This document shows, piece after piece, positions 2,334-20,347 of a stretch of DNA of 64,000 bases. The stretch is taken from assembly GCA_036725345.1 (NCBI GenBank), contig DAIMEJ010000005.1, positions 19,717 through 83,716 of the forward strand, in the 5' to 3' direction. Origin of the DNA: Syntrophales bacterium (lineage in GTDB: Bacteria; Desulfobacterota; Syntrophia; Syntrophales; UBA2192). Under the pieces are notes generated by a model. The model was not told the origin of the DNA. It saw only the letters and a list, made by a program, of their open reading frames with translations, and did no database searches. How positions within the stretch are numbered: the stretch's first letter is position 1; each line of letters starts with the position of its first letter. The translations under genes and the position numbers were made by a program.

Positions 2334-4070
2334 TTACACGTCGGTGATTTTGACGTCCGCCAGGACCTTGCCCAGATTGGAAGTGACGCTCTCTTTGTTG
2401 TTGATATACACCTTGGTCGGTGAGGATTGGTCCGTGTTCGACTCGTAATCCCGGATGCTCAAGCGGATCTTCCTGGCCTTCGGATCGACATTCTTGACCA
2501 CGGCCGTGACCGTGTCGCCCACAGCAAAGAGTTCCGAGGCCGACTTGACCCTCCTCGTGCTCAGCTCCGAAATGTGAACCAGGCCTTCGATGCCGTCTTC
2601 GACTTCCACGAAGACACCGAAATCGGTGATGTTGGTCACCTTGCCGGTGACAACGGAACCGACACCGTGCCGGATGCCGAACTCTTCCCAGGGATTGGTT
2701 TCAAGCTGCTTGATACCGAGTGAAAACTTCTCGTTCTCGGCATCCACGTTGAGGACTACGGCCTCAACCTCCTGGCCTTTCCTGTATACTTCCGACGGAT
2801 GCTTGATCCGCTGTTTCCAGGATATGTCGGATACGTGAACCAGGCCGTCGATTCCCTCTTCCACCCCGATGAAGATGCCGAAGTCGGTGACGTTTCTGAC
2901 CTTTCCCTTGATGACCGTCCCGGCGGGATATTTCTGCTTCAGCGCAATCCAGGGGTTGGGCGTTGTCTGCTTCAGGCCGAGGGAGATGCGTTTGTTTTCG
3001 GGACTGACGTCCAGAACCATGACCGATACCTGGTCCCCGACGGAAAGGACCTTCGAGGGATGTTTGATTTCCCGGGTCCAGAACATCTCGGAGACATGAA
3101 CGAGCCCCTCGACGCCCGGCTCGAGTTCCACGAAGGCGCCGTAATCCACAATGCTCACCACTTTCCCCTCGATCATGGCCCCCACGGGATAACGTTCCCG
3201 AATCGTATCCCACGGATTTGCCGACAACTGTTTGAGTCCCAGCGACACCCGCTCCTTCTCCCGGTCGAACGAGAGCACCTTGACCCTGATCTTCTCCCCG
3301 CGGTTGAAGGCGTCCGACGGGCGGGTGACCTTGCCCCAGGATATGTCGGTGATGTGAAGAAGTCCGTCGATGCCGCCCAGATCGATGAATATACCGTAAT
3401 CGGTGATGTTCTTGATGACACCCTCCATCACCTTCCCTTCCTCGATGATTTCCAGAAGCTTCTTGCGCTCCTCACCCCGCTCCGCCTCCAGGATGGCTCT
3501 TCTGGAGAGAACGACATTGTTTCGTTCACGGTCGTATTTGATGATGTTGAACAGACAGGACTGACCGACAAAGCGGTCCAGATCCTTCACGGGACGAACA
3601 TCCACCTGGGAACCGGGAAGGAACGCAGGAATGCCGATGTCCACGGAAAGACCCCCCTTGACCCGCTCGACGATGGTGCCCTTGACGGGTATATTGCTCT
3701 GGTGGGCTTGGATGATCTTGTCCCAGACTTTTATGCGAGCCGCCTTGTTTCTTGAGAGAATGAGTTCCCCTTCTTCATTTCGCCGCTCAACGAGGACTTC
3801 TATTTCGTCCCCGACTTCGACGCCCACACCCCCCTGATCGTCTTTGAATTCCACGGCCGGGATCTGACCCTCCATCTTGGATCCCACATCCACCATGACG
3901 ACATCATTGTTGATCTGAACGACGCGGCCCCTGACAATTTCCCCCCTGCGTATATCCTGAAGGCTCTGCTCATAGAGCTCCTTAAATACCATTTCCTCTT
4001 CTTTGTCCGCCGGCTTCGGCTCCTTCCCTGACGATTCCGGATTGATTTTGTTGTTGACATCGTTGACCAT
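2334..4070 (-). CDS. rpsA: 30S ribosomal protein S1
   Basis: 578 aa made of repeated S1 RNA-binding domains (G.V..I..FG.FV.L..G..GL.H.SE pattern six times). AAGGGGG RBS upstream. Confidence 0.97.
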   Translation of the reverse strand: MVNDVNNKINPESSGKEPKPADKEEEMVFKELYEQSLQDIRRGEIVRGRVVQINNDVVMVDVGSKMEGQIPAVEFKDDQGGVGVEVGDEIEVLVERRNEEGELILSRNKAARIKVWDKIIQAHQSNIPVKGTIVERVKGGLSVDIGIPAFLPGSQVDVRPVKDLDRFVGQSCLFNIIKYDRERNNVVLSRRAILEAERGEERKKLLEIIEEGKVMEGVIKNITDYGIFIDLGGIDGLLHITDISWGKVTRPSDAFNRGEKIRVKVLSFDREKERVSLGLKQLSANPWDTIRERYPVGAMIEGKVVSIVDYGAFVELEPGVEGLVHVSEMFWTREIKHPSKVLSVGDQVSVMVLDVSPENKRISLGLKQTTPNPWIALKQKYPAGTVIKGKVRNVTDFGIFIGVEEGIDGLVHVSDISWKQRIKHPSEVYRKGQEVEAVVLNVDAENEKFSLGIKQLETNPWEEFGIRHGVGSVVTGKVTNITDFGVFVEVEDGIEGLVHISELSTRRVKSASELFAVGDTVTAVVKNVDPKARKIRLSIRDYESNTDQSSPTKVYINNKESVTSNLGKVLADVKITDV

Positions 4071-9673: not shown

Positions 9674-9708
9674 AAAAAAAGGGCCGCAAGCCAATAAACC
9701 CGCAGCCC
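9674..9708 (-). terminator. displaced chromosomal tRNA-Cys terminator
   Basis: On the minus strand, GGGCTGCG-loop-TGCGGCCC followed by TTTTTTT, lying just 3' of the partial tRNA-Cys copy. Confidence 0.55.
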
Positions 9709-9721
9709 TTTTACTTTATTA

Positions 9722-9769
9722 TGGAGGCGGCAACCGGATTCGAACCGGTGAATAACGGTTTTGCAGACC
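9722..9769. repeat. att direct repeat (partial 3' copy of tRNA-Cys)
   Basis: 48 nt identical base for base to 20300-20347 (tRNA-Cys CCA end through the anticodon loop). The sequences diverge at 9770 / 20348. Confidence 0.9.
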
Positions 9770-9878
9770 AATCTTTAGTGTTTAAACCTACCTGATTTCA
9801 ATAACCTTTCCACCCTGCCCTTTTTCCCGTGTTGTGAAAATTGATGGGACTTAATTTTTCGAATGATTAATCTAGATG

Positions 9879-11835: not shown

Positions 11836-12132
11836 TCATATCTTGTTGTTTTTTTCAGCTTTGTCCAATCTGTCTAATTCCTTTTCTAATTCATCCAGTA
11901 CTCCATCTAAATCACTTTTATTCATGCGTGCTTGCTTGAGTGCCTCCCTATGCGATTTTCCTTCTCTATAAATGTAGAACAGAATCAACGGCCAGAAAAT
12001 GATACCCAACAAAACAAAATGTAAGTTCCTTAAATCAATCTTTCTGTCAAAACCATGAGCTTGCGATTGTCGAATCTTATAATAAACAACTAATACCCCT
12101 ACGATTAACCATCCCAAGACAACCTTTGTCAT
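11836..12132 (-). CDS. hypothetical two-TM membrane protein with coiled-coil tail
   Basis: 98 aa with helices VVLGWLIVGVLVVYY and FVLLGIIFWPLILFYIY, then LDGVLDELEKELDRLDKAEK. AT-rich DNA. Confidence 0.55.
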   Translation of the reverse strand: MTKVVLGWLIVGVLVVYYKIRQSQAHGFDRKIDLRNLHFVLLGIIFWPLILFYIYREGKSHREALKQARMNKSDLDGVLDELEKELDRLDKAEKNNKI

Positions 12133-12319
12133 GGCACTGTCCCCCTAAATGCTTTGATTTCAAAATTTATCTTCTTTCTGTGAAACCCCTACCTATACAA
12201 AAAAGCCTGAGACCTTCCCCGGAGCATAAGCATCCGCCCAAGCGTCGCCGCCGTGGGGATCTCAGGCTTTCTAATCTTGTCCTGTTTCATTGCTTATGCC
12301 TCGGGAATTTAGTTTTATA

Positions 12320-12331
12320 AGTTATATAACT
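12320..12331. promoter_or_regulatory. perfect 12-bp palindrome, candidate operator
   Basis: AGTTATATAACT lies in the divergent intergenic region, 66 nt upstream of the RHH gene start. Confidence 0.3.
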
Positions 12332-12396
12332 ATATGCACCTATTAAATCAAGAAAAATTACGTTGCGGATAATACCGCGTTTCGGTATAAAAGGCC

Positions 12397-12567
12397 ATGT
12401 CAACCGAGTTGCCAAAAATCATTTTTCACCTTGATGAATCGTTACTGAAGCGCCTTGATGATTTCCGTTTCAAGCATCGCATCAATTTCAGGTCCGCCGC
12501 CATCCGACGCCTTCTCGAAGAAGCCTTGAAGAAATACGAGAAACGCTCGATGAAGAAAGGGGGATGA
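12397..12567 (+). CDS. ribbon-helix-helix (CopG/Arc/MetJ-like) DNA-binding protein
   Basis: 56-aa ORF below the track cutoff, translated by hand: MSTELPKIIFHLDESLLKRLDDFRFKHRINFRSAAIRRLLEEALKKYEKRSMKKGG. It shows a beta-strand-helix-helix pattern. Its stop is 4 nt before the next gene. Confidence 0.65.
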   Translation: MSTELPKIIFHLDESLLKRLDDFRFKHRINFRSAAIRRLLEEALKKYEKRSMKKGG

Positions 12568-12571
12568 TATA

Positions 12572-13048
12572 TTGAGGAAATATTTTACCCTTCTTTTCAT
12601 ATTTGCTGTCTTGACACCCACTAATCTTTTTGCGGCTGATTTCTATCTATATCTGGATAACTGCAAAGCCACCGTGGGATACCTCGTCGAATCCAAAGAA
12701 AATATCAAAACAGTTGATTTTGATGAAATGATCATTTCGTGTAGTAGAGTATCCCAGACAATTAAATGCGAAACGGTTTTTTTTGAAGGACAAAAAGCCA
12801 TTCAAGAGAAAAAGTTTGAATACTTCGTTGAGTTAGATTCTCCGCCGATTCTCATTTTCACCGACACAATACGGAGCGACTATTTCGTGGTAGATCTTAA
12901 TCAACACGCCGTGACAATGGTTTCACGAGTTTTGGGTGAAAAATTTGCAGGATCTAAAATTTGCACGGGCCTATATTTTACTGAGAGTGAAAGAAAATTG
13001 TTAGAAGAGAAGAAGCCCCGCACTCCTACCCCTACCCGCAAAAAATAA
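12572..13048 (+). CDS. hypothetical secreted protein
   Basis: 158 aa with a TTG start and signal peptide MRKYFTLLFIFAVLTPTNLFA. It has four Cys and a basic Pro/Thr tail. No family recognised. Confidence 0.55.
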   Translation: MRKYFTLLFIFAVLTPTNLFAADFYLYLDNCKATVGYLVESKENIKTVDFDEMIISCSRVSQTIKCETVFFEGQKAIQEKKFEYFVELDSPPILIFTDTIRSDYFVVDLNQHAVTMVSRVLGEKFAGSKICTGLYFTESERKLLEEKKPRTPTPTRKK

Positions 13049-13121
13049 TCGCCCTGAATCAATCCTGCGAAGCCCTGAATAGGCATTGACGCCCTGTCCC
13101 CGGAGTGGTATCAAATTCGAC

Positions 13122-13424
13122 ATGGATATTTCAGACCGTGATGACAATATAATCACCCTGCTCGCCTATTATCTGCACCTTGATGCGCTTAAAAAAGAGG
13201 GCCTCCTTGACAATGAATTGTTAATTAAATTTTATGAAAATTTAACTGACGAACAAAAGATGCATCTTGTTTTCTTCCAATACAAACAAATATCACTTGC
13301 TAACGAATGGAAGAAATTTCTTGAGAACCCCGAACCTAATATCAGCCGTTCCGAAGCCGTCCGTCGCACCTTTGATGAAGCCATGAAGAAATTCGAAGAA
13401 CGGATAAAAAAAACGGAAAAGTGA
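13122..13424 (+). CDS. hypothetical helical protein
   Basis: ORF 13086-13424. The ATG at 13122 (MDISDRDD...) is the likelier start. AT-rich, and no family recognised. Confidence 0.5.
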   Translation: MDISDRDDNIITLLAYYLHLDALKKEGLLDNELLIKFYENLTDEQKMHLVFFQYKQISLANEWKKFLENPEPNISRSEAVRRTFDEAMKKFEERIKKTEK

Positions 13425-13439
13425 GCCTCCTTTCCGCCC

Positions 13440-13544
13440 TCACCGCACCATAAACGAAAGAATCCAAAAGATCACAGCCGCCGTCACTATAAAGCAATAG
13501 ACGATCCCCGGCGGGCTTTTGATTAAGTCTCTGAAAGTCTCCAT
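13440..13544 (-). CDS. possible 34-aa single-TM peptide
   Basis: Hand translation METFRDLIKSPPGIVYCFIVTAAVIFWILSFMVR. Its ATG is 2 nt after the stop of the upstream HTH gene. Support comes only from position and hydrophobicity. Confidence 0.25.
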   Translation of the reverse strand: METFRDLIKSPPGIVYCFIVTAAVIFWILSFMVR

Positions 13545-20104: not shown

Positions 20105-20241
20105 CAAGAAAATTGCTTATGCCGAAAATACTGCCCTATCTGATGCATCTGATGCATGGAAAGGTGTTGTGAAAATTACTGTGACTCGGGAGGCGAAAAG
20201 CGGGTTTTTTGTGCTTTACCGTACTTTCTGTGATACTCATC

Positions 20242-20286
20242 GAGAAAAAGAAAAAGGGTCGCAAGTCATTGATATACCTGCAACCC
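20242..20286 (-). terminator. element-borne terminator now serving the tRNA-Gly/tRNA-Cys transcript
   Basis: On the minus strand, GGGTTGCA-15 nt loop-TGCGACCC followed by TTTTTCTTTTTC. Homologous with indels to 9674-9708. Confidence 0.55.
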
Positions 20287-20299
20287 TCTGACTTTATTT

Positions 20300-20347
20300 T
20301 GGAGGCGGCAACCGGATTCGAACCGGTGAATAACGGTTTTGCAGACC
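20300..20347. repeat. att direct repeat inside the intact tRNA-Cys
   Basis: Identical to 9722-9769. Confidence 0.9.

Follow-up and report, generated by a model that had tools for sequence, protein, structure and literature searches.

Which parts of the AT-rich block at 11836–13544 belong to the element that carries them, and which are exchangeable cargo? A sequence-only reading of the window (the whole 64,000-nt stretch of Syntrophales DNA analysed here) described this block as a single cargo unit between int and the capsid-side gene, in which a small ribbon-helix-helix (RHH) protein heads an operon with a secreted protein. All ORFs and both palindromes are found at the positions given there, and the description of the block as low-GC agrees with its composition, which is 0.39–0.43 GC as compared with 0.55–0.62 in the capsid and primase genes. 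The notion of one cargo unit did not hold: the RHH gene and the spacer ahead of it are conserved backbone, and only the genes after the RHH gene, together with the two-TM gene, are variable passengers (Table 1). We consider it probable that positions 12194–12567 form the conserved regulatory switch of a satellite-like island that is integrated at a tRNA and encodes a capsid and PrimPol, and that a repressor-led cargo operon goes with it. The block would thus be organized in the style of lambda cI-rexAB with a new leader RNA added, the functions being predicted from sequence.

Table 1 Features of the block in coordinates of the window; minus-strand elements within the RNA and P_left are written 5' to 3'
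Feature	Position	Strand	Details
98-aa two-TM membrane protein gene	11836-12132	-	passenger between leader RNA and int
Structured leader RNA (candidate)	12194-12308	-	~115 nt; covariance model 74.2 bits, E 6e-11
RNA helix A	12305-12291 with 12232-12218	-	pseudoknot-type
RNA conserved linker	12290-12285	-	AUGAAA
RNA terminator stem B	12270-12260 with 12212-12202	-	11 bp, perfect
RNA hairpin C	12257-12237	-	GNRA (GCGA) loop
RNA U tract	12201-12196	-	stem B, then UUUUUUG
Back-to-back divergent promoters and candidate RHH operators	12309-12396		
P_left (predicted)	-35 12351-12346; -10 12328-12323	-	TTGATT, 17-nt spacer, TATATA; -10 within the 12-bp palindrome
P_RHH (predicted)	-35 12363-12368; -10 12386-12391	+	TTGCGG, 17-nt spacer, TATAAA, then 5 nt to ATG
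12-bp palindrome AGTTATATAACT	12320-12331		exact; degenerate adjacent copy 12311-12322
Inverted repeat ATACCG-N5-CGGTAT	12372-12388		exact; within the 17-nt P_RHH spacer per promoter map
56-aa RHH regulator gene	12397-12567	+	probably leaderless mRNA; backbone gene of the element family
158-aa secreted (periplasmic) beta-rich protein gene	12572-13048	+	cargo; translationally coupled to RHH
100-aa helical orphan gene	13122-13424	+	ATG start; last of the plus-strand operon; 112 aa if TTG 13086 is the start

A candidate structured leader RNA opposite the RHH gene

The spacer had been noted for its operator candidates, which remain plausible, but its main feature had been missed: on the minus strand it encodes a conserved, structured leader RNA that includes a terminator. 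The covariance model of this RNA yields at least 52 matches, every one on the strand opposite the RHH gene, and the RHH gene is divergent from the RNA in all 11 of the loci found with the RNA model alone. The RNA is present in 24 of 151 genomes (~16%) and in 18 of 53 genera of the class. In relatives, the next leftward gene starts 3–22 nt past the RNA and is often the integrase itself; where other genes intervene, the leftward series ends with int. The corresponding gap in the window, from the U tract to the next start codon, is 61 nt and therefore long enough, compared with the relatives, that the two-TM gene may have its own promoter here.

The base pairs of the three helices covary. In the covariance-model alignments, from which the pair statistics were taken, 87.8% of the cells are paired, as against 67.8 ± 1.0 in shuffles; double changes occur at 19 of 19 pairs, compensatory cells number 203 versus 55, and 0 of 500 shuffles attain the observed covariation values. 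Helices A and C together are 82.7% paired versus 61.0, and stems B and C were recovered independently by RNAalifold. Specifically, cognate duplexes are more stable than non-cognate ones in helix A (-18.6 vs -10.1 kcal/mol), stem B (-19.1 vs -9.8 kcal/mol) and hairpin C (-7.2 vs -3.5 kcal/mol), with p <= 5e-5 in each case. Additionally, G·U pairs occupy about 126 of 927 cells, which fits the minus strand only, and the single-sequence fold has a z-score of -2.5 to -2.8.

Stem B has the form of an intrinsic terminator, with a perfect 11-bp stem that covaries in 52 sequences and a U tract on its 3' side in nearly all of them. A simple terminator scanner missed it because its loop is a 47-nt branched insert. 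Helices A and B make up a topological pseudoknot and are able to form simultaneously, so helix A need not be an antiterminator. A scan at the Rfam gathering thresholds returned three tRNAs only and no match for this RNA, the one hit of a permissive scan of 12100–12420 was ctRNA_p42d, whose 21 bits fall below the threshold of 50, and the hairpin is not repeated in the genome. We regard the RNA as a well-supported candidate for a conserved structured leader that is previously undescribed and absent from Rfam. A 33-aa gene call at 12189–12290, which begins at the conserved AUG, was rejected, since among loci it is anywhere from 2 to 84 codons long, its ATG is absent in three of them, and its frame shifts relative to the conserved nucleotides.

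The RHH regulator and the predicted divergent promoters

The 56-aa ORF, which had been picked out by hand as an RHH gene leading the plus-strand operon, is conserved and indeed stands first in that operon. Its product matches phrog_4738 'transcriptional repressor' (E 2.6e-10) and phrog_876 (E 1.5e-6), and its homologues comprise 107 clusters with 54–76% identity. Its Pfam RHH_1 score is 16 bits, under the 20.5-bit cut-off; many homologues at 70% identity have PF01402 matches or the name 'CopG/Arc/MetJ regulator', and the length and conservation pattern of the alignment agree with an N-terminal β-strand and two helices of ~45–55 aa. By these profile matches, the ORF is a genuine CopG/Arc/MetJ-type RHH regulator. 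The gene adjoins integrase or capsid remnants in other loci, and it is a conserved backbone gene of the element family.

When 48 distinct loci are aligned on the RHH ATG, TTG stands at -35 and TAT at -12, and an SD-like tetramer is found at -16 to -4 in 0 of 48. This geometry, in which the -10 element is placed so that transcription would begin at the A of the ATG, and the lack of a Shine-Dalgarno sequence indicate that the predicted RHH mRNA is leaderless. On the other side, TTGAC(A/T) is conserved upstream of the RNA; P_left has weak -10 elements (TATnnn, the final T being absent). A simple promoter scanner detected neither of the two promoters.

The two inverted repeats overlap the -10 regions of both divergent promoters, and the 12-bp palindrome with its degenerate neighbour is unique to this spot within the 64 kb. 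As judged by mononucleotide and Markov shuffles, a perfect 12-bp palindrome arises in 7–12% of shuffled spacers and two 6-N(0-10)-6 inverted repeats in 10–28%, so both palindromes alone are not beyond chance; their support comes from their position and from the comparison with related loci. In that comparison, the repeat differs with the type of RHH β-strand: KIIFVA/KIILVM occurs with GGTAT, ILNFA(V/I) with TTAAGAA, and KILITL with GATAT/GGGGAT, while the window RHH, with KIIFHL, has two GGTAT and two GTTAT, a covariation across loci that is confounded by relatedness. These observations favour the proposal that the repeats are plausible RHH operators, since they lie over the -10 regions and carry GGTAT/GTTAT-type half-sites that co-vary with the β-strand.

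Passenger genes and the cargo slot

The gene next to the RHH gene follows its stop codon by 4 nt and has a TTG start with the SD sequence AAAGGGGGA 7 nt upstream. Its 158-aa product, described earlier as secreted and Cys-containing, bears a signal peptide and four cysteines (C31, C57, C66, and C131) that are invariant in the family. The family counts 135 relatives among 1.8 billion representatives, and the loci of homologues were traced from phmmer representatives, by profile searching and by looking up contigs. The protein has no Pfam, PHROG, NCBIfam or PADLOC family match, and profile searches against PDB sequences returned nothing. Its AF2 model (pLDDT 91.6) contains nine antiparallel strands and a C-terminal helix. 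The best PDB fold matches of the model are weak (E ~2e-3 to 1e-2, TM 0.27–0.41), and the best match among viral models is an unnamed protein (E 1e-5, TM 0.5), with phage 'lipoproteins' next. The fold comparison concerns calycin, lipocalin and FABP-like β-barrels, to which the predicted model bears a weak resemblance.

The earlier reading asked whether homologues of the secreted protein always follow an RHH gene, and the pairing turned out not to be conserved in either direction, a result that by the terms of that reading itself tells against a dedicated RHH/secreted-protein system. Homologues of the 158-aa protein occur in contexts without this RHH: L009–L011 have no regulator nearby, G049 has it after an XRE gene, and the rest neighbour a tRNA or are surrounded by lipoprotein genes. 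Conversely, the 158-aa family is absent after the RHH gene in the related loci, which number about 140 in Syntrophales, Desulfobacterales, and Acidobacteriota and in which the post-RHH gene differs almost every time. Among these genes are one of 58 aa and one of 93 aa, and genes for an RNase_T-like exonuclease, an ankyrin lipoprotein, SIR2-like proteins, an HSDR_N_2 nuclease, XRE and PilZ-like proteins, and numerous proteins that are secreted or lie in the membrane. In L065, the closest relative, the leftward int, small genes and RNA follow the tRNA, then come the rightward RHH gene and other cargo, and finally the leftward capsid gene; its integrase is 48% identical to that of the window, and the backbone order is the same. 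The secreted protein and its neighbours are encoded by exchangeable passengers and do not make up a toxin-antitoxin (TA) pair.

The remaining two genes are near-orphans. The 100-aa protein has no family match in Pfam, PHROG, NCBIfam and PADLOC searches and 0 homologues in 400 genomes of the phylum, and its single-sequence AF2 model is all-helical (pLDDT 70). Its C-terminal 24 residues resemble RHH helix 2 (hhalign against the RHH profile, 94% probability, E 1e-7, 24 columns), with 58% identity to the window RHH across 19 aa by BLASTP. The 98-aa gene has a strong SD (AGGGGGA), and its product has two hydrophobic segments and a charged tail; the reported likeness to the membrane protein of the first cassette was not borne out, as no sequence similarity is detectable between the two. 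Among 400 genomes of the phylum it has one homologue, in G327, where it is 39% identical to the N-terminus of a 251-aa membrane protein. The equivalent position in related loci is either empty, with int directly after the RNA, or occupied by unrelated small genes.

A proposed switch and its alternatives

The comparisons show that the parts are conserved, that the RNA is structured, how the promoters are laid out and that the cargo varies; RHH binding, repression, attenuation and the role of the cargo are inferred from them. We propose that the two back-to-back promoters fire in opposite directions. P_RHH would produce a leaderless mRNA whose first gene encodes the CopG/Arc-type RHH protein, and this protein would bind the repeats over both -10 regions, at 12311–12331 in P_left and at 12372–12388 in its own promoter, limiting its own synthesis and repressing leftward transcription. 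The genes after the RHH gene would be co-transcribed and hence expressed while the island is quiescent, a passenger logic resembling that of lambda cI-rexAB or prophage morons. P_left would give the ~115-nt structured leader, which ends just before the leftward genes (the two-TM passenger, then int) and may serve as a conditional terminator, or attenuator, keeping integrase low until a signal permits read-through. Our guess, drawn from localisation signals and a weak fold resemblance, is that the passengers most likely serve a host or an exclusion function at the envelope. More tentatively, and with some doubt on our part, the pseudoknotted, terminator-embedding RNA could represent a new class, either an attenuator that responds to a factor or ligand or an immunity RNA resembling P4 CI. 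With the leaderless RHH gene it would then make up an immunity/excision switch, not described before, of satellite-like islands in Syntrophales/Desulfobacterota, and the RHH-headed operon would serve generally as a platform for expressing exchangeable envelope and defence cargo. A literature search found no account of the RNA/RHH module.

Instead of a leader, the RNA could be a stable trans-acting product, an island immunity factor like P4 CI or P1 c4 whose exposed loop (the 3' strand of helix A) pairs with nascent island or helper transcripts. Its architecture recalls P4 seqA/seqB, in which a 5' segment is complementary to the loop of a terminator-ended stable hairpin, and the 12-mer of the helix A 5' strand, GGCATAAGCAAT, recurs at 20112–20123 on the minus strand just upstream of a candidate early promoter. 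However, about 0.15 such repeats are expected by chance after correction for all words tested, which makes the recurrence marginal; it lies upstream of the -35 and may not be transcribed, and nine other elements searched, up to 17 kb, have no comparable second copy at a consistent place. Since the RNA also matches neither Rfam C4 nor other families, and the tight spacing from terminator to start codon favours a leader, we judge a trans-acting RNA unlikely. Less probable still, the conserved intergenic element might act as DNA, for instance by providing arm sites for recombination, an origin or a palindrome to which a protein binds. It adjoins int, compensatory changes also occur in DNA inverted repeats, and direct repeats that are possible Int arm sites are present at 9829–9851 and 20164–20186. 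Nevertheless, the 13–14% of paired cells that are G·U would be A·C on the other strand or in a cruciform, the GNRA tetraloop is conserved, only one strand has a U tract after the 3' arm, and the position is fixed between the conserved TTGACA promoter and the next start codon, all of which speak for RNA over DNA.

The sequence-only reading had also noted that RHH-first operons are usually TA or partition modules. In a dedicated TA, abortive-infection or partition system, the RHH protein would act as antitoxin or adaptor for the 158-aa protein, and the 100-aa and two-TM proteins might or might not take part. Type II TA and ParG/omega systems typically have the RHH gene first in a translationally coupled operon, the 4-nt gap conforms to this, and the RHH-helix-2-like tail of the 100-aa protein could mean interaction with the RHH protein. 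Against this stand the periplasmic nature of the 158-aa protein, which its signal peptide and invariant cysteines set apart from a cytoplasmic toxin, and its lack of any PADLOC, Pfam or NCBIfam toxin or ParA family match. None of the four proteins has an ATPase domain in Pfam/NCBIfam searches, so no ParA/ParF ATPase is among them. The unconserved pairing argues in the same direction, as the 158-aa homologues lack this RHH and the RHH homologues precede unrelated genes in ~140 loci, and the 100-aa and two-TM proteins have almost no relatives. A dedicated module of this kind is thus very improbable, and the reading of the operon as a repressor followed by passengers is preferred.

Comparison with known systems

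In lambda, cI is expressed leaderless from the autoregulated promoter PRM, followed by the accessory genes rexA-rexB, which stay on during quiescence to the benefit of the host; prophage 'morons' and the repressor-linked defence genes of mycobacteriophages have a similar arrangement. The block resembles cI-rexAB in having a predicted leaderless repressor, divergent from the lytic or excision side, with accessory genes downstream. It differs in its repressor, a 56-aa RHH protein in place of an HTH protein whose C-terminal domain can be cleaved. What is transcribed divergently is a structured leader RNA to int and not cro, and the cargo is a predicted periplasmic protein. P22 immI (Arc, Mnt; arc-ant) and CopG-RepB of pMV158 likewise have an RHH protein of ~53 aa as the first gene of an autoregulated operon, with operators overlapping divergent promoters. 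In contrast to them, there is no antirepressor or Rep gene downstream here, the downstream genes vary among relatives, and the window RHH is only sub-threshold for Pfam RHH_1.

The RNA shares with P4 CI RNA and P1/P7 c4 (Rfam C4, RF01695) a small structured leader, an upstream segment complementary to the RNA loop and, as predicted here, termination-based control; unlike them, it leaves the Rfam model unmatched, has no conserved second target site in the elements searched, and lies ahead of int-side rather than replication genes. The slot itself recalls the accessory hotspots of P4-like satellites and PICIs, where a fixed backbone has a near-int slot exchanging unrelated, often AT-rich genes, and some relatives' slots hold SIR2-like or restriction-nuclease-like genes. 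The present elements differ from these in their Syntrophales/Desulfobacterota hosts, in their capsid and PrimPol backbone, and in the boundaries of the slot, which are the RHH gene and the convergent capsid-side gene; the cargo of the window matches no known defence family.

These results change the annotation of such islands, in that the RHH gene and spacer count as backbone and only the downstream genes as cargo, and they mark the post-RHH slot as a place to seek accessory or defence genes in islands of uncultivated anaerobes. The proposed circuit offers a testable scheme for how integrase expression is controlled in satellites beyond those of the well-studied Proteobacteria and Firmicutes. 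Additionally, the analysis defines an unannotated periplasmic four-cysteine family of at least 135 clusters and adds a candidate structured RNA absent from Rfam, with at least 52 examples and three covarying helices, in ~16% of the genomes of the class.

Gene layout of the RHH block and the island ends

The AT-rich block contains the four ORFs described by the sequence-only reading, with unchanged coordinates, and its low GC content was likewise borne out (0.39-0.43, versus 0.55-0.62 in the structural and replication genes). The island ends in a 76-nt direct repeat that includes the 3' half of tRNA-Cys. Just within both ends lies a 23-nt direct repeat, 87% identical, which may represent integrase arm-type sites. 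Additionally, a 34-aa hydrophobic ORF (METFRDLIKSPPGIVYCFIVTAAVIFWILSFMVR), which has no family match, starts 1 nt beyond the HTH_17 stop codon and may encode a coupled small membrane peptide.

Positions of features in the RHH block and at the island ends
Feature	Position	Strand	Remarks
76-nt end repeat	9694-9769; 20272-20347		direct repeat
23-nt repeat	9829-9851; 20164-20186		direct repeat
98-aa 2-TM protein gene	11836-12132	-	ORF
Leader RNA	12194-12308	-	covariance model, 74.2 bits
Degenerate neighbour of AGTTATATAACT	12311-12322		
Predicted P_left		-	TTGATT-17-TATATA; -10 within palindrome AGTTATATAACT
Predicted P_RHH	TTGCGG 12363-12368; TATAAA 12386-12391	+	17-nt spacer; 5 nt from TATAAA to ATG; sequence
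56-aa RHH gene	12397-12567	+	ORF
158-aa secreted protein gene	12572-13048	+	TTG start, AAAGGGGGA upstream, 4 nt past RHH stop codon
100-aa protein gene (ATG) or 112 aa (TTG)	13122 (ATG) or 13086 (TTG) to 13424	+	ORF
RHH-helix-2-like tail	13344-13421	+	last 24 residues of 100-aa protein
34-aa ORF	13440-13544	-	
Second GGCATAAGCAAT copy	20112-20123	-	12-mer

The small RHH ORF found by the earlier reading is genuine and conserved. Specifically, it matches PHROG 4738 ('transcriptional repressor') with an E value of 2.6e-10, and searching 5.8 billion proteins yielded 107 homologue clusters with 54-76% identity, nearly all of 52-56 aa and several named CopG/Arc/MetJ regulators (alignment A3); the Pfam RHH_1 match is sub-threshold.

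A conserved, probable leader RNA lies opposite RHH

The sequences that precede RHH genes, when compared across loci, share conserved blocks with compensatory changes, which outline a structured RNA on the strand opposite RHH. The 5' part of the RNA consists of the helix A 5' strand, an A-rich linker with a conserved AUGAAAA and the 5' arm of stem B; the middle contains hairpin C with a GNRA loop (GUGA, GCGA or GCAA), followed by GCGG; and the 3' part comprises the helix A 3' strand, a purine-rich CCGGGGAAA, the B 3' arm and a U tract. A covariance model built from 17 sequences recovered 52 distinct examples among the collected loci, all on the opposite strand to RHH. In the model alignment of these examples, 87.8% of cells are paired (67.8 ± 1.0 when shuffled), double changes occur at all 19 pairs, and compensatory cells number 203 versus 55 ± 8 in shuffled alignments; none of 500 shuffles attained these values, and sliding of the partner columns abolishes the signal. 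RNAalifold finds B and C independently. Helix A was modelled separately because it crosses B, and the resulting A+C alignment has 82.7% of cells paired versus 61.0 when shuffled, with double changes at five of the six helix A pairs and about one quarter of sequences out of register.

The helices were further evaluated by a register-free test, in which every 5' window was paired with the 3' window of the same locus and with those of other loci, and the duplex energies were compared. Cognate and non-cognate values were -18.6 versus -10.1 kcal/mol for A, -19.1 versus -9.8 kcal/mol for B, and -7.2 versus -3.5 kcal/mol for C (permutation p <= 5e-5 for each). Since G.U accounts for ~126 of 927 paired cells and a U tract is present, the RNA was assigned to the minus strand. 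The linkers, of 17-32 nt, ~30 nt and 5-12 nt (the last is 21 nt in a single locus that has a duplication), are long enough to permit an H-type pseudoknot; helix A may either stabilise or antagonise the terminator. The RNA has no match in Rfam. A short ORF placed over it by the gene caller was rejected, as it shows no conservation.

Of 151 genomes of the class, 24 contain the RNA according to the covariance model, in one or two copies; they represent 18 of 53 genera. All 11 RNA-found loci with sequence on that side carry a divergent 51-72-aa RHH ORF, 44-100 nt from the RNA 5' end, and RNA-found loci include two RHH subtypes. The second, sequence-distinct subtype (M..K..YNTTI..DLIKKLK...NDLLEEAIQDLLKKYEK; loci L197, L198, L199, L202 and L204-L207) partners the same RNA, which is thus conserved more than its protein partner. 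In relatives, the next minus-strand gene, often the integrase itself, begins 3-22 nt past the RNA, a gap too short for a promoter, so that in these loci the RNA is a 5' leader carrying a terminator within it. The window itself has a 61-nt gap, with the 2-TM passenger as the first gene. Partial duplication of the module is suggested by two loci: in L068 the RNA model gives a second, partial match at 2749-2849(-), 560 nt from the first, and in L215 a 13-mer of the helix-A/AUG segment is duplicated at ~365 nt from the 5' end of the RNA.

Predicted divergent promoters, candidate operators and a proposed regulatory model

Alignment of 48 distinct loci on the RHH ATG revealed TTG at -35 and TAT at -12 from it, and an SD-like tetramer precedes the ATG in none of them; from this geometry, the RHH mRNA is very probably leaderless. 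The opposite strand has a conserved element of its own, TTGAC(A/T), which is ~9-11 nt away from the RHH -35 and precedes the RNA by ~50 nt; its counterpart in the window is the TTGATT of predicted P_left. ATACCG-N5-CGGTAT occupies the spacer of predicted P_RHH and overlaps its -10. Across the 64 kb, AGTTATATAACT matches nothing apart from itself and its degenerate neighbour.

Both inverted repeats, proposed earlier as RHH operators, are exact (12320-12331 and 12372-12388), but the palindromes by themselves fall within chance expectation. The repeats between the P_left-type -35 and the RNA are specific to each RHH subtype: GGTAT accompanies the beta-strands KIIFVA/KIILVM, TTAAGAA accompanies ILNFA(V/I), and GATAT/GGGGAT accompany KILITL; in the window, where the RHH beta-strand is KIIFHL, GGTAT and GTTAT each occur twice. 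No other evidence supports the candidate operators better than this protein-DNA co-variation, which is confounded by relatedness.

The component parts are shown, and the following circuit is proposed. The established behaviour of RHH regulators is known from Arc, Mnt and CopG. Together with position, it suggests that RHH would repress P_left and autoregulate P_RHH, and that in the quiescent island the cargo would be co-transcribed with RHH. In addition, int-side expression would be limited by the leader terminator. The main rival is that the leader RNA acts in trans, in a P4-CI-like manner. A second copy of the 12-mer GGCATAAGCAAT, which comprises the helix A 5' strand and AU, occurs at the attR end upstream of a candidate early promoter, 8 nt from its TTGACG -35; this copy is marginal after multiple testing and has no conserved counterpart in nine other elements.

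Exchangeable cargo downstream of RHH

We collected ~140 RHH loci by contig look-ups for three homologues and by scanning collections of genomes, metagenomes and viruses with back-translated queries. The gene downstream of RHH differs almost each time, including a 58-aa gene, a 93-aa gene and RNase_T-like exonuclease, PilZ-like, XRE-like, ankyrin lipoprotein and SIR2-like genes, as well as many genes for proteins with signal peptides or TM segments. The 158-aa family is absent from all of these loci, as are the 100-aa and 2-TM proteins; the matches of the 100-aa query are the RHH genes themselves. The closest relative, in a Syntrophales MAG (L065; int 48% and capsid 34% identical), reads tRNA-Arg, int <- 73 <- 132 <- 66 aa <- RNA, RHH -> HSDR_N_2 nuclease-like 286 aa -> 84 -> 117 aa, <- capsid; judged from sequence, it is the same backbone with different cargo.

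The 158-aa protein has no match in Pfam, PHROG, NCBIfam or PADLOC, and phmmer detected 135 relatives among 1.8 billion representatives, with a length of ~150 aa in almost every case. Among 73 aligned members, D-F after the N-terminal hydrophobic segment and four cysteines are invariant. The AlphaFold2 model from the family alignment (pLDDT 91.6) adopts nine antiparallel strands and a C-terminal helix, with weak calycin/FABP/LolA-like Foldseek matches in the PDB (TM 0.27-0.41) and further matches to phage proteins that are uncharacterised or labelled 'lipoproteins' (E 1e-5 and TM 0.5 for the best). The family is rare, matching in 2 of 400 other genomes of the phylum (G049, strong, E 6e-49; G138, weak, E 2.9e-4). 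An identical protein occurs on 19 contigs, which give no added variation since all have 99.9-100% DNA identity to the window.

Homologue contexts are varied and often mobile: without a regulator upstream on three metagenome contigs, after an XRE-HTH gene between two integrases in G049, beside a tRNA, among lipoproteins, adjoining HTH_17/primase-like genes, or between HNH and IS200-type genes. The pairing of RHH with the secreted protein noted earlier does not recur in the related loci examined, and these comparisons place the protein in an unannotated family without link to RHH. The G049 locus (L015, G049:C16, 7557-8263), with a 49%-range homologue 17 nt past a 78-aa XRE-HTH gene and tyrosine-type flanking integrases, is another pair of small regulator then secreted protein, and its regulator fold differs from RHH.

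The 2-TM protein had been likened to the membrane protein of cassette 1, the first AT-rich block, but no similarity between the two was detected by sequence comparison; a search of 400 genomes gave it a single relative, the N-terminal part of a 251-aa membrane protein. For the 100-aa protein, 400 genomes yielded no relative, and its single-sequence model is all-helical (pLDDT 70). Its tail matches RHH helix 2 (hhalign 94%; also by BLASTP), which could be a recombination scar or an RHH-interaction surface.

The post-RHH slot of relatives holds SIR2-like genes (L077 3685-4773; L167) and an HSDR_N_2 PD-(D/E)xK-like nuclease gene (L065 3795-4655), consistent with defence cargo in some islands. Small PilZ-like proteins recur beside RHH modules and beside a 158-aa homologue (L057, L079, L045-L049, L020/L021), which hints at c-di-GMP-linked cargo.
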